Positions 30,001 to 33,000 of a stretch of DNA of 64,000 nucleotides are shown piece after piece. A program made the position numbers. The first letter of the stretch is position 1; every line of letters starts with the position of its first letter. Origin of the DNA: Bdellovibrionota bacterium (GTDB lineage Bacteria; Bdellovibrionota_C; UBA2361; JBGSMV01); the NCBI GenBank assembly GCA_041739995.1, contig JBGSMV010000015.1, positions 75,854-139,853 on the forward strand, read 5' to 3'.

Positions 30001-33000
30001 CGCTCCTTGAGCACCAAGTCTGATAGAATTTCTTCCCCCTGACCTTTCATGCGTAGTTTAGCTCCAACGAACAGGCGCTGATTGAGTTCTAATCGGCATA
30101 ATGTCGAAAAATCTGGACCTCCGAAGCGATGAAGATCGTGCAACTCCGCCCGTCCCTCTAGGAAAAACGAGCACGCCCCAATGGGACACCCAATCTCCCC
30201 TGCTCGCCCCACCGCCACCCGCGTCTCCGGAAGCTGCCCCAGCCTCCAATAGCTGGCCACCCACGCTTGCCAACCCCGCTTCTGCCGAAAACCCTTGGGC
30301 AAATCGACTCGTGGGCCGATTCGCCGACACCCATTGACCGCGCTCCAAGCGCTCCTGAACATCTCTGTAATTTCAGCACACTAAGCCGTGGTTTTGGGAA
30401 AGAGAGGATCCCTACCCGTCACTCCGCTTCTATAGCGGTCTGTATTTACTACGAAAATTAATAAATCCTTTCTTCCTTCACTCGCGTCTTATAGACATAA
30501 GAGCAACTTGAGCTCTAACTGCTTGTGTTTGCTATATAAGTGAAGTAGTAACGGAAGAATTTCCGAGCATTTGTATCAAGCTCGTTTCGTGGTCTGAAGT
30601 ATTCGAGAGCCGTTTTTCATTAGAGTGCCCCACCCTTTTGGGATTCTCTAGCAGAAAATTAGCCTTGAACTAACTGGGTCCGAGTCGAGTCTTTTTCAGC
30701 GAGATCCATGTATGGGCAATACCCGCTACTGTTTGACCAAAGCTGATTTAGCAGACTCTATTTACGCGGCGCTTCCGCTCGATAAGCAGAAGGCGGCGCA
30801 GATTGTCGAAGATTATGTTGAGCTCATCAAAGATGCGCTCGCCAAGGATGGCAAGGTAATGCTGTCTGGATTCGGCTCTTACGAAGTTAAGTTCAAACCC
30901 GCACGTCGTGGGCGCAACCCTCAGACCGGTGATTCGATCATTCTCCGACAACGCAAAGTCGTAAAATTCAAGCCAAGTCAGTTGCTGCGCAAAGCCATCA
31001 ACGGAAACACAAATATCTCCGAAGCTGATGCTGACTCCTTCGATGATACCGACGACGATATGTAGCCGAACCTGCGCTGCCCCGTCTCGTAGTCCCTCTT
31101 GGAATGTCCCTCTTGGAATGTCCCTCTTGGAATGTCCCTCTTGGAATGTCCCTCTTGGAATGTCCCTCTTGGAATGTCCCTCTTGGAACTTATATCACCC
31201 AATTGTGTAGCGAATCTGCGGCGCTTGGGTGCGCGCTGGTGTCGAGCCTCTTTGAGCTGCGCCGCTGCTTGCAATAGAGCACCTCTACCCACATCGCCGC
31301 AACTTCGGAGCGCCCTCAAAGCACCTGGGTTTCAAATGGATTTGCCTCGAAGCGAGGTGGTCCTCTAAGCTCAAGGCCTATGAGATACATCCCCTTCCCT
31401 ACCGCTTCGACGTTGCTCCGGTTCGCTGCGCTCATCATTTGCTTGCCTCTATCTGGATGCAAAGAAAGCACTCCGCAGACTTCGACGCCTTCAGAGCCAA
31501 AGACCCATTTTGGACAGGCACTCGAAAGTGCCCGTGACACAAGCGCGGCCGTCTCTTTAAAGAATCAGCAAGTCCAAGAAGAGATCAACGAATTGGGGGA
31601 CGAGCAGCAGACACCCGAGGAGTAGAGTAAGGACAGCTCATTCTTCGCCTCACTTCTTAGCCAGCCTTGGTCGCTCTCTGTTTTAAACAGCCCTCTCGGT
31701 ATTCCACTCATCCATAAATACGATCTCCTAGTATGAAAAAATGAAAATGAAGAAAAAAGGGCGGCTAAGCGAGAAGGGTCAGTGCCAAGGCAGGCGCTTG
31801 GTTGGCTTGAGCAAGAACAGCCGCACCGACTTGAGTAAGGATTTGTCTCCGAGCAAGCTCAGCGCTGTCCTCCGCCACATCAGAATTGGTAATTCGCGCG
31901 TTCGCCGCGTTGTAGTTTTCGACTCGCGAGAAAAGCGCCCCTAGGGCTGCGCCAAGTCGGCTTTGACTGCTACCGATGGCTCCCCTTTCCAATGCAAGAC
32001 GACGCATAACGCCCTCAAGCAGATCTAAGGCGTCGTAAGCACCTTGCTGAGTCGTGATGTTGAGTCTCTGAATCGTCGTCGATTCCTGCGTATTGGCGAG
32101 ATATATTGAGTTGGAGGAAATTAAATCTGGCACCCCATCATTATTGAGATCCACCGCCCACGAACTGGCCGCGGGAGCATAAATCTCTGAATTCGCAAAG
32201 GTCCCGTCTCCTCCACCATAAAAAGCCTTCGCCTTTCCGCCAGCATCCCGCGTCAGGAGATCTAGTTTCCCGTCACCATTCATATCAATGATAGATAGGA
32301 CTCCCAAGCCTCCCGTGCCGACATTCACCGCTGAATGAAAAGTTCCATTGCCGCTTCCGCTGAACGTGTGAACACCGCCCGCTGAGATTGCCGCTGCGTC
32401 AAGGATGCCGTCGTTATTGAAGTCGCCTAATTGAACATTGCTGATGCCGATGACCGCAGGAGTGATGAGAGAATTCCCCGCCTGAAAAGTTCCCGTTCCA
32501 GTCCCAAGCGCGCTCACCAGAGAGGCGCCCGACGCATAGGCGATATCTAACTTGCCGTCGCCGTTAAGATCCCCGAGTGCTAGGGTTCCTGCGGCAGCAG
32601 CGCCGGTGAGCCCCGTGGCAAATGCGGTGCCAAAGGATCCGTCGGCAGCGCCAAGTCTGGCAGAAATAACACCGGCCGTTGAGACGCTTACAATATCGAC
32701 AAGCCCGTCCCCATTGAGATCTCCGATTTCTAACGCATTCACCGCTGAGGCACTAAGGAGGGTGGAGTCCATAAAGGTACCATCCCCATTTCCCAACGCG
32801 ACATAGAGTCCGCCACCTCCAACACCATCGTTATTTCCCTCGATGACATCAAGAAAACCATCCCCATTTAGGTCAGCTAACCGCGAAGTCGAACTCAAGC
32901 CGCGCGCTTAACGACGAAGACACTGCAACTCCGGCCTGAAAAGTCCCGTCTCCGTTCCCGAGATGCGCATAGAGCGCTCCGGCATCATCGGTTACAATCA

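Follow-up and report, generated by a model that had tools for sequence, protein, structure and literature searches.

The genome analyzed here (G000, a 3.81 Mb MAG of 81 contigs, 91% complete) contained 165 exact tandem duplications with units of 12–18 bp, and the shuffled genome contained only one. These duplications are derived mutations. When they were free of diverged neighboring copies, their junctions showed microhomology at chance level, and their boundaries were enriched for a cytosine at the position that bacterial topoisomerase I is documented to prefer. Nicks made by this enzyme (TopA) may initiate the duplications, with slippage enlarging the arrays afterwards. We consider this reading a serious candidate, with somewhat less than an even chance of being right.

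We counted exact lag-p repeats with at least two copies of a primitive unit. For p = 10 to 19, the counts were 8, 6, 31, 23, 28, 49, 13, 8, 13, and 1, and a single codon-block shuffle gave 1, 1, 1, 0, 0, and so on from p = 10 upward. The range of unit lengths was thus narrow (12–18 nt), as the earlier note on this DNA had described. The unit sequences all differed between duplications. Arrays were present at every stage of decay, and their total is several hundred once the decayed ones are included. The split into coding and non-coding DNA was based on our own ORF-based gene call (85.0% coding), which over-extends 5' ends, so that some upstream events were counted as coding. Non-coding exact duplications numbered 12, 17, 25, 20, 12, 7, and 8 for p = 12 to 18. 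The corresponding coding counts were 19, 6, 3, 29, 1, 1, and 5, and 53 of these 64 coding cases were in frame. This agreed with the claim that genes keep mostly in-frame units.

Three further statements of that note were also recovered in our counts. At least three extra bases followed the two copies in 72 of 161 two-copy cases (45%). Spacers behind genes were richer in duplications than divergent spacers, with 0.213 per kb of tandem and 0.274 per kb of convergent spacer versus 0.080 per kb of divergent spacer; within tandem spacers, a quarter of them lay in the first 8% past the stop codon. The motif CAGTG/CACTG occurred 20 times in 252 unit consensuses versus 6.5 times expected from the non-coding background.

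The array that had been flagged lies in the 3' region of an HU/IHF-like gene, in the 64-kb window (the whole stretch of DNA that the note describes). Its first base is 27 nt past the stop codon. The positions in the window are as follows.

30712..31065, + strand: gene for an HU/IHF-like DNA-binding protein, 117 aa
31087..31091, + strand: left flank TCGTA of the 14-bp array, with T at −5 and C at −4 (position 31088) relative to the first base of the array
31092..31188, no strand: flagged array with the 14-bp unit GTCCCTCTTGGAAT, 6.93 exact copies, TRF score 194

The left flank TCGTA fits a topoisomerase-I-like signal at the level of sequence. The right flank, read directly from the sequence, is CTTA and does not carry such a signal. 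The same window harbored further repeats of this class and one copy of a MITE family.

2401..2438, no strand: 18-bp unit, 2.1 copies, 80% matches
7351..7390, no strand: 15-bp unit, 2.7 copies, 80% matches
12289..12320, no strand: exact duplication, 16-bp unit, 2.0 copies; right flank ATTG, in which G at +4 equals C at −4 on the minus strand
17489..17524, no strand: 16-bp unit, 2.2 copies, 90% matches
30252..30281, no strand: 13-bp unit, 2.3 copies, 82% matches, weak
31637..31662, no strand: 13-bp unit, 2.1 copies, 85% matches, weak
37623..37683, no strand: 18-bp unit, 3.4 copies, 86% matches, older and partly decayed
42035..42077, no strand: 15-bp unit, 2.9 copies, 85% matches
44107: weak 12-bp repeat
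59730..59872, + strand: copy of a 143-bp MITE family without a duplication; the family was used for the ancestral-state test

TRF reported seven arrays with a period of 12–18 and a score of at least 48 in the window versus none in 50 kb of E. coli K-12, which is a small outside control.

Repeats in an 81-contig MAG whose contig ends share 141-bp overlaps, as is typical of a short-read assembler, could in principle be artefacts of assembly or sequencing. We regard this as hardly credible. Two units span at most 36 bp, which is far below the read length, and the filter for in-frame units within genes is a mark of biology. Relatives also had duplications of this class. Independent contigs from four public runs of one study, compared over window positions 30001–50000, agreed with the MAG at the covered arrays without inserted or missing letters. 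One X3 contig omitted 70 nt (five units) of the 14-bp array; its joint could lie anywhere within 27 nt, and the omission is possibly a repeat collapse.

The ancestral state could be read from the MITE family and from protein alignments. We scanned about 127 alignments of the 143-bp MITE (15.9 kb; some were counted on both strands) for insertions of at least 10 nt. These included exact 13-bp and 15-bp tandem duplications as well as a diverged 16-bp unit in three copies, and the MITE consensus was single-copy at the three sites that were duplicated within individual copies. All three coding duplications that we examined were insertions in comparison to three to five orthologues. A 30-residue insertion in a glutamate dehydrogenase-like protein of this organism is an example of in-frame gain of a peptide. 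Because duplications occurred inside MITE copies with a single-copy consensus and all three coding cases were insertions, we concluded that the tandem duplications are derived. Together with the diversity of the units and the in-frame bias in genes, this bears out the view of the earlier note that they are mutational footprints rather than binding sites.

The density behind genes, two to three times that of divergent spacers, and the accumulation close to stop codons would also be expected if the arrays were selected functional elements, for example spacing elements or repeats that bind protein or RNA in 3' untranslated regions. The HU/IHF-like gene adds a further case, as its orthologue in relative G004 has a different 13-bp near-duplication directly after the stop codon. 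The array itself was not found at the orthologues in G001–G004; at this locus, the only one that was compared, relatives showed no conservation. Selection for function also does not go along with units that are all different, with arrays at every stage of decay, or with duplications that arise within MITE copies and genes. We therefore consider selected elements very improbable.

We tested the junctions for microhomology. Among the 161 two-copy exact cases, 58 had a diverged neighboring copy and 103 were clean. Clean cases with zero to four extra bases numbered 43, 17, 11, 5, and 2 (n = 78) versus about 43, 22, 9, 3, and 1 expected by a two-sided geometric formula that was scaled by hand. In relative G010, the corresponding numbers were 13, 14, 2, 4, and 2 versus 18, 10, 4, 2, and 1 expected. 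Clean two-copy events thus showed microhomology at chance level, and duplications were born independently of it.

This result argues against replication slippage or an unprocessed 5' flap as the origin, in which a slipped or displaced end would re-anneal about 15 nt away, on a short direct repeat, before being ligated. Slippage and flaps are a known route to short duplications, and microhomology-mediated duplications are named as the dominant form and rise in rad27 mutants, according to the accessible part of a recent study (bioRxiv 10.64898/2026.02.28.708716). Such re-annealing needs microhomology, however, and it predicts neither a sharp lower limit at 12 nt nor a position-specific base outside the repeat. 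Since many arrays hold third, diverged copies (the 58 cases mentioned above), slippage does act after birth. The earlier note had favored slippage or a deficiency of the FEN1/Pol I 5' nuclease, and this mechanism was not supported. The polA gene of G000 is one intact 940-aa ORF, in which nuclease, proofreading-like, and polymerase motifs were all recognized by eye, and the 5'-nuclease domain PF02739 was present in 41 of 41 genomes. In the G010 sequence, polA is split between one ORF for a 276-aa 5' nuclease and another for a 642-aa polymerase, which would favor a nuclease defect. The split comes from a 1-nt shift within a T6A8 run, which may have been introduced during assembly. We consider an origin by slippage or flaps unlikely.

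The boundaries of the duplications carried a signal of their own. A G at +4 outward, which equals a C at −4 of the boundary nick, was present at 132 of 330 boundaries versus a background of 27% (p = 3e-7). Among the 100 exact boundaries, 50 had C at −4 of the putative nick (p = 2e-7), and 41 had T at −1 (p = 1e-4). At the level of events, 40 of 50 with exact boundaries had C at −4 on at least one side versus 45% by chance (p = 5e-7). The signal was seen in the coding and the non-coding subset alike. Loci of relatives (G001–G004 and G034) showed C at −4 in 25 of 60 boundaries (p = 0.008) and in 11 of 12 exact-boundary events. The signal was weak in G010 (40 of 186 boundaries versus a background of 16%; 7 of 17 events versus 29% by chance).

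The C at −4 is a statistical enrichment and marks only about half of the boundaries. A first single-strand look for a boundary motif gave nothing strong, and the full 4-mer ACTG/CAGT coincided with a boundary in just 13 of the 161 events; the conclusion is based on the single-position test and not on the 4-mer. In a set of 34, position −5 was T or A in 25, −4 was C in 21, and −1 was T in 14. There was a lean to the non-template strand (21 of 34 versus 12 of 34; sign test, p = 0.078), which disappeared with looser boundaries (29 versus 22 of 50) and was reversed in relatives.

Bacterial topoisomerase I requires or prefers a cytosine 4 nt 5' of the scissile bond, as stated in the accessible parts of three reports (PMC3467081; PMC6101483; PMC9352719), and the C at −4 seen here matches this documented preference in sequence terms. 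The in vivo motif of the E. coli enzyme is given as TCNTT|A (PMC9352719, accessible part). Position −2 in our set was a purine, unlike the T of that motif.

Staggered double-strand cuts 12–18 bp apart, made by a dimeric nuclease, a transposase, or an integrase and followed by fill-in and end joining, would leave an "empty" target-site duplication or an excision footprint. They would give microhomology-independent duplications in a narrow length window, and the pooled flank signal on both sides would fit. Fill-in at staggered breaks is known to create duplications, as far as the accessible parts of two studies go (PMC8355091; yeast Top2, bioRxiv 10.1101/2020.05.03.075358). When single events were considered, however, C at −4 was present on both sides in 10, on one side in 30, and on neither side in 10 (n = 50), so that both-sided events were no more common than expected from chance pairing. 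End-joining genes also argue against this origin. Ku was not found in G000, G001, G010, or G034 and was present in 3 of 61 genomes; ATP-dependent ligase (PF01068) was not found in G000 (91% complete), G004, G010, or G034.

Casposases make target duplications of 14–15 bp. A Cas1 or casposase origin was rejected on the distribution of Cas1, which was present in the duplication-poor G028 and not found in G034 or G004 and thus did not track the duplications. Two mobile elements of this genome were also rejected as the source of footprints (further elements may be missing from the assembly). The termini of the MITE are CTAG, and its 56 full copies lacked a long flank repeat, and an insertion sequence at 13 + 13 contig ends showed a best flank match of 6 bp and none of at least 7 bp. 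We give staggered cuts only a small chance of being the source.

The density of duplications varied strongly between relatives, which were sampled in part (213 kb of G034 and 293 kb of G010). It was 317 per Mb in G010, 56 in G034, 43 in G000, and 30 in G004, with none in 100 kb of G029. G010 thus had about seven times the density of the present genome, and its family mates G028 and G039, which have the same G+C content, had 20 and 11 per Mb. The feature is therefore patchy across the order, and the earlier reading that it is specific to the genus was not supported. Earlier out-of-frame figures for relatives were not reproduced in our samples: G003 and G004, both given as 0, had three cases each (in 339 kb and 200 kb, respectively), and G001 had none among five cases in 281 kb.

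We also compared TopA between these genomes. A search of 41 genomes gave one type IA topoisomerase match in each except G016 (three fragments), and no Topo III or reverse gyrase was found in these genomes as an extra topoisomerase of the duplication-rich ones. TopA of G000 was closest to mycobacterial TopoI (6pcm, E = 2e-237). Its motif RRIIDRLFGY (RRxxxRxxxY) aligned with the C-binding pocket of M. tuberculosis and M. smegmatis TopoI (R168, R172, and Y176 in M. tuberculosis numbering). Judged from this alignment, TopA is present with an intact C-binding pocket. Pocket, TOPRIM, and active-site motifs, compared by eye over the N-terminal 300–350 residues, were alike in G000, G010, G028, G029, and G034. 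As TopA and the pocket residues are equally conserved in the duplication-poor G028 and G029, the enzyme alone does not explain the differences between lineages.

If duplications start at a TopA nick, the steps may be as follows. TopA would cut 5'-(W)CNN(T)|N, four bases past a C, and remain on the 5' phosphate. A DNA polymerase would then extend the freed 3'-OH by 12–18 nt and displace the TopA-linked strand. The extended 3' end would next be connected with the 5' end again, through religation by TopA or by a ligase once the adduct is removed, and the looped-out additional copy would become a tandem duplication at the next replication. With two copies present, ordinary slippage could change the copy number (up to 6.9 here), and point mutations would erode old arrays, while selection would purge out-of-frame events from genes. 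We infer every enzymatic step, the factor that sets the length, and the cause of the different intensities between lineages. The model does not so far account for the length of 12–18 nt.

The position of the duplications is in line with TopA nicks by analogy. M. smegmatis TopoI cuts within transcription units but spares promoters and upstream regions, according to the accessible part of the study (PMC9352719), and such a distribution would fit the 0.21–0.27 duplications per kb behind genes versus 0.08 in divergent spacers. The depletion in divergent spacers can equally be explained by purifying selection on promoters. More tentatively, and with a lower probability than initiation at the nick itself, we suggest that TopA cleavage complexes start a mutational signature of defined length (12–18 nt), which would be the first for a type IA topoisomerase. 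Its length would reflect the extension by the polymerase before rejoining, and its intensity would be tuned by a lineage-specific factor, such as trapping of TopA or a missing repair step. Our literature search on type IA topoisomerases and tandem duplications returned no paper or experiment that links them.

Related processes are known from other systems. Bacterial VNTRs or minisatellites also consist of head-to-tail units of 10–20 bp that can grow by slippage, at a handful of loci per genome. The 6.9-copy array resembles them, and its copy number can rise by slippage; the difference lies in the 165 exact duplications and the decayed arrays, several hundred in number, which are unrelated in sequence but share a length window and a flank signal. 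In plants, a "patch-mediated" model explains small tandem duplications by fill-in at adjacent nicks or staggered breaks. We know of no bacterial counterpart of the eukaryotic fill-in pathway. In that pathway, duplications filled in by Pol alpha-primase have a length that reflects the distance from the nick to the end of fill-in and need no microhomology, which is similar to the events seen here, but they depend on eukaryotic end joining as described in the accessible part of the source (PMC8355091), and end-joining genes were not found here.

De novo duplications caused by trapped yeast Top2 are alike in that a topoisomerase cleavage complex initiates them, the duplication begins at the cleavage site, and no microhomology is needed. 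Top2 is a type II enzyme that cuts the strands 4 bp apart, and its duplications measure 2–4 bp and arise when the 4-nt stagger is filled in and the ends are joined by Ku-dependent NHEJ, as far as the accessible text states (bioRxiv 10.1101/2020.05.03.075358). In contrast, the units here measured 12–18 bp, the flank signal was the one of a type IA enzyme, which cuts one strand only, and no Ku or ATP-dependent ligase was found. The MTD signature of rad27/FEN1 likewise consists of short head-to-tail duplications that seed repeats and expand later (bioRxiv 10.64898/2026.02.28.708716, accessible part). MTDs are defined by their microhomology arms, whereas clean events in this genome had arms at chance level and a sharp length window. 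The accessible part of the literature on tandem duplications in Sulfolobus does not give duplication sizes.

Within bacterial mutation spectra, short insertions are what is understood least. The view now in print traces the birth of tandem duplications to microhomology, and about 100 young, clean events in this genome were not born in this way. Duplications without sequence overlap, together with the C at −4, hint at an undescribed way for genomes to gain DNA. The best handle on the cause is the comparison of G010 with its family mates G028 and G039. If the link to TopA fails, a defined, lineage-variable mutational process is still left whose cause merits finding. If the link is true, it would show, in a form open to testing, how an essential enzyme can add new DNA to a genome, and it would define a scar to look for both in further genomes and in experiments on a trapped TopA, such as the G116S/M320V type employed for Topo-Seq (PMC9352719). 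It would also explain a steady source of new repeats (minisatellites), of variation in 3' regions, and of in-frame peptide insertions.

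The excess of 12-18 bp tandem duplications that the earlier note had described for this genome (G000) was confirmed. A scan for exact lag-p repeats, with p as the unit length, gave 8, 6, 31, 23, 28, 49, 13, 8, 13, and 1 for p = 10 to 19, which amounts to 165 exact repeats for p = 12-18, while the same scan of a codon-block shuffle of the genome (one replicate) gave 1, 1, 1, 0, 0, and so on. TRF rows with a period of 12-18 and a score of at least 48 numbered seven in the 64-kb window and 0 in 50 kb of E. coli K-12, a small control. By a simple ORF-based gene call, in which 85.0% of the sequence was coding, the non-coding exact duplications for p = 12 to 18 were 12, 17, 25, 20, 12, 7, and 8, and the coding ones 19, 6, 3, 29, 1, 1, and 5, with 53 of 64 in frame. 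Among the 11 out-of-frame "coding" cases several were located at the extreme 5' ends of ORFs, which were probably over-extended by the caller, or in short doubtful ORFs. The density of exact cases per kb was 0.213 in tandem, 0.274 in convergent, and 0.080 in divergent spacers, and that of TRF arrays 0.52, 0.58, and 0.27, respectively. CAGTG/CACTG occurred 20 times in the unit consensuses of 252 arrays compared to 6.5 expected from the non-coding background, an about 3-fold excess.

The array at window positions 31092-31188 comprises 6.93 exact copies of a 14-bp unit and starts 27 nt 3' of the stop codon of an HU/IHF-like gene (30712-31065, + strand). At the equivalent position G004, a relative of the same family, has a 13-bp near-duplication that differs from the array and directly follows the stop codon of its HU/IHF orthologue (locus L216); G001, a relative of the same genus, has a long hairpin there instead of a duplication. 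Every 14-nt unit of the array contains GGA in the context UUGGAAU; seven tandem units of this type in a 3' untranslated region would resemble a sponge for a CsrA-type RNA-binding protein, which is speculation on our part. Two neighboring ORFs of 377 and 244 aa on the minus strand (31765-33607) showed, by eye in translation, flagellin-like end segments and Gly/Asp-rich repeats of the FG-GAP/VCBS kind. The window corresponds to C42:75854-139853 of an assembly of 3.81 Mb in 81 contigs with 52.4% G+C and an estimated completeness of 91%. The closest named records to its RpoB were metagenome-assembled genomes labeled as Bdellovibrionota, the top match having 90% amino-acid identity. Contigs from four public runs of one study (hot-spring and biofilm metagenome labels, 2-7x depth) contained the stretch and matched the assembly; the lone discrepancy, a 70-nt skip within the 14-bp array, may be due to repeat collapse. 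We give little credence to a selected function or an artefact as the origin of the duplications.

The density of exact duplications was also determined for sampled sequence of relatives.

Exact duplications (p = 12-18) per Mb in this genome and its relatives; sample sizes differ
G000, this genome: 43 per Mb (3.81 Mb)
G001, same genus: 18 per Mb (281 kb, all 5 in frame)
G002, same family: 10 per Mb (199 kb)
G003, same family: 15 per Mb (339 kb, 3 out of frame)
G004, same family: 30 per Mb (200 kb, 3 out of frame)
G034, another family: 56 per Mb (213 kb)
G017, same order: 20 per Mb (100 kb)
G022, same order: 10 per Mb (100 kb)
G029, same order: 0 per Mb (100 kb)
G063, same class, outside the order: 10 per Mb (200 kb)
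G066, same class, outside the order: 5 per Mb (200 kb)

A surprise was the relative G010 (1.9 Mb, 31% G+C), in which the 293 kb sampled contained 93 events (317 per Mb). The events were present in all 15 sampled stretches, and shuffles gave about 0. Its length profile for p = 10 to 17 (6, 12, 46, 11, 12, 19, 3, 2) again rose sharply at 12, whereas its family mates of equal G+C were poor in duplications (G028, 2 in 100 kb; G039, 1 in 94 kb). The process is therefore not the property of a single genus. Its intensity is switched up and down among close lineages.

Self-comparison of the genome revealed a 143-bp MITE that has imperfect inverted ends of 22 bp, begins and ends with CTAG, and is present in 56 full copies and 132 BLAST loci, including one copy at window 59730-59872. 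Taking the MITE consensus as the ancestral state, we found that two MITE copies had gained an exact tandem duplication, one of 13 bp and the other of 15 bp, and that a third MITE copy contained a diverged 16-bp unit repeated three times. The remaining long insertions in about 127 alignments (15.9 kb, partly double-counted as the element matches both strands) were an expansion of an internal 9-mer and, in highly diverged copies, two non-duplicative insertions. A subfamily lacks one copy of this 9-mer. The palindrome CTGTGNCACAG, the most frequent of the 5-N-5 type genome-wide (48 sites versus 40 for the runner-up), adjoins MITE copies, e.g., at C53:27411 and C36:107833, and may be a regulator binding site or a piece of another small repeat. 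Target duplication by the two mobile elements compared was rejected as the source, because 12-18 bp target duplications were absent from the MITE and from a multicopy insertion sequence. In the latter, 13 + 13 contig ends terminate inside its two ends (26 ends; contigs C10, C12, and C40, for example, at both), and its paired flanks showed no target duplication of at least 7 bp.

At least three extra bases of a further copy were present in 72 of 161 two-copy exact cases. A diverged neighbor copy (at least 60% identity) was found beside 58 of the 161; these are young duplications within older arrays, with slippage on the existing repeat as the obvious cause. The other 103 cases included 25 in which 5-13 extra bases make up a nearly complete third copy, and 78 with 0 to 4 extra bases (43, 17, 11, 5, and 2). 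Without microhomology a two-sided geometric distribution, scaled by hand from the formula, predicts about 43, 22, 9, 3, and 1. The corresponding numbers for G010 were 13, 14, 2, 4, and 2 versus 18, 10, 4, 2, and 1 expected. In the 13-bp event within the MITE, an ancestral 5-nt direct repeat 12 nt apart was left unused. The extra bases are thus at chance level and the births independent of microhomology, which argues against both slippage and the rad27/FEN1 model, in which unprocessed flaps re-anneal and which is put forward as the dominant route in 10.64898/2026.02.28.708716. The slippage or FEN1-type flap-repair defect proposed in the earlier note was therefore not borne out.

Loss of the Pol I 5'-nuclease was also rejected, since polA with a 5'-nuclease domain was present in 41 of 41 genomes. 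In G010 (locus L267, G010:C12:224001-232000, 2859-5640) polA comprises a 276-aa 5'-nuclease ORF and a 642-aa polymerase ORF, which a 1-nt shift in a T6A8 run would make continuous and which have a 12-bp near-duplication in the linker. Such a split would fit a flap-nuclease defect; however, judged from the sequence it may be genuine (a split gene or a pseudogene-like break) or may stem from misassembly of the homopolymer, and polA of G000 is a single, unsplit ORF of 940 aa with nuclease, exonuclease-like, and polymerase motifs seen by eye. We consider an origin by flaps or slippage unlikely.

The boundaries of the duplications were then compared, with both sides pooled, the left flank reverse-complemented, and bases counted outward. 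The fourth base was G at 132 of 330 boundaries (background 27%, p=3e-7). For the 50 events with exact boundaries, i.e., no extra matching base, it was G at 50 of 100 boundaries (p=2e-7), and the first base was A at 41 of 100 (p=1e-4). On the putatively nicked strand this corresponds to C at -4 and T at -1. Positions neighboring the C at -4 were unremarkable, and the signal was seen in coding and non-coding subsets alike. It was present on at least one side in 40 of the 50 events versus 45% by chance (p=5e-7): on both sides in 10, on one in 30, and on none in 10. For 34 oriented exact events, read on whichever strand was better marked, -5 was T/A in 25, -4 was C in 21, and -1 was T in 14. In the left flank of the 14-bp array, T occupies -5 and C occupies -4, and an exact 16-bp duplication at window 12289 carries the signal on its right side. 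A replication set fixed beforehand (loci of G001-G004 and G034) showed it at 25 of 60 boundaries (p=0.008) and on at least one side in 11 of 12 exact-boundary events. The signal was weak in G010 (40 of 186 boundaries versus 16% background; 7 of 17 events versus 29% by chance), which had T-rich unit ends in place of a strong C at -4.

Ku was not found in G000, and among the 61 genomes sampled from the phylum it occurred in only 3. A search for ATP-dependent DNA ligases in G000, G004, G010, and G034 was likewise negative. Staggered double cuts appear an improbable origin. Cas1 was rejected as a candidate because its occurrence does not track the duplications: besides G000 and G010, duplication-poor G028 has it too, and none turned up in G034 or G004. 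The strong Cas1 match of G000 is located at C19:1041-1907; a weak one (C24:13336-13629) adjoins an array with a 61-bp period and ~70% self-identity (C24:14237-16216), probably a CRISPR locus.

Bacterial topoisomerase I (TopA, type IA) selects cytosine 4 nt 5' of the cleavage site (PMC3467081). According to PMC9352719, the E. coli enzyme cleaves in vivo at TCNTT|A with a strictly required C, and the M. smegmatis enzyme cleaves within transcription units but spares promoters and upstream regions. The latter pattern would agree with divergent spacers having a two- to three-fold lower density of duplications, for which selection on promoters is an equally good explanation. A single type IA topoisomerase was present in each of the 41 genomes. 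The closest match to the 938-aa TopA of G000 is mycobacterial TopoI (6pcm, E=2e-237), and the two align in the motif of the C-binding pocket. Over the N-terminal 300-350 residues TopA looks alike in G000, G010, G028, G029, and G034.

As the most likely sequence of events, though one we hold tentatively, we propose initiation by TopA followed by slippage. TopA would cut a single strand and hold the 5' phosphate, a polymerase would lengthen the 3'-OH by 12-18 nt, and the longer 3' end would be rejoined to the TopA-held 5' end. The loop with the extra copy would be fixed at the next replication, and the new repeat would then be subject to slippage. This model accounts for the missing microhomology and the one-sided signal per event, and does not need end-joining genes. 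It leaves unaccounted for the length window of 12-18, the many events with weak signal in G010, and what sets duplication-rich lineages apart from poor ones. In type IA enzymes the open gate is ~6 nm wide, equivalent to about 12-18 bp of duplex. A literature search for "type IA topoisomerase" with "tandem duplication" found nothing on TopA-born duplications; in the portions of the literature covered, yeast Top2 duplications were the nearest published counterpart.

For all three conserved proteins examined (UvrD-like helicase, large glutamate dehydrogenase-like, and D-Ala-D-Ala-ligase-like), comparison with 3-5 orthologues of G001-G004 and G034 showed that the duplicated segment had been inserted. 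Since these orthologues lack the segment and the MITE consensus is single-copy, sequence comparison indicates that the duplications are derived mutations, and repeated rounds can yield longer insertions. The glutamate dehydrogenase-like gene (C36:163650-168938) encodes a reiterated, low-complexity insertion of 30 residues rich in Ser/Thr/Lys, which is absent from 5 orthologues and contains a 15-bp duplication. It is an example of how such duplications make a core enzyme longer.
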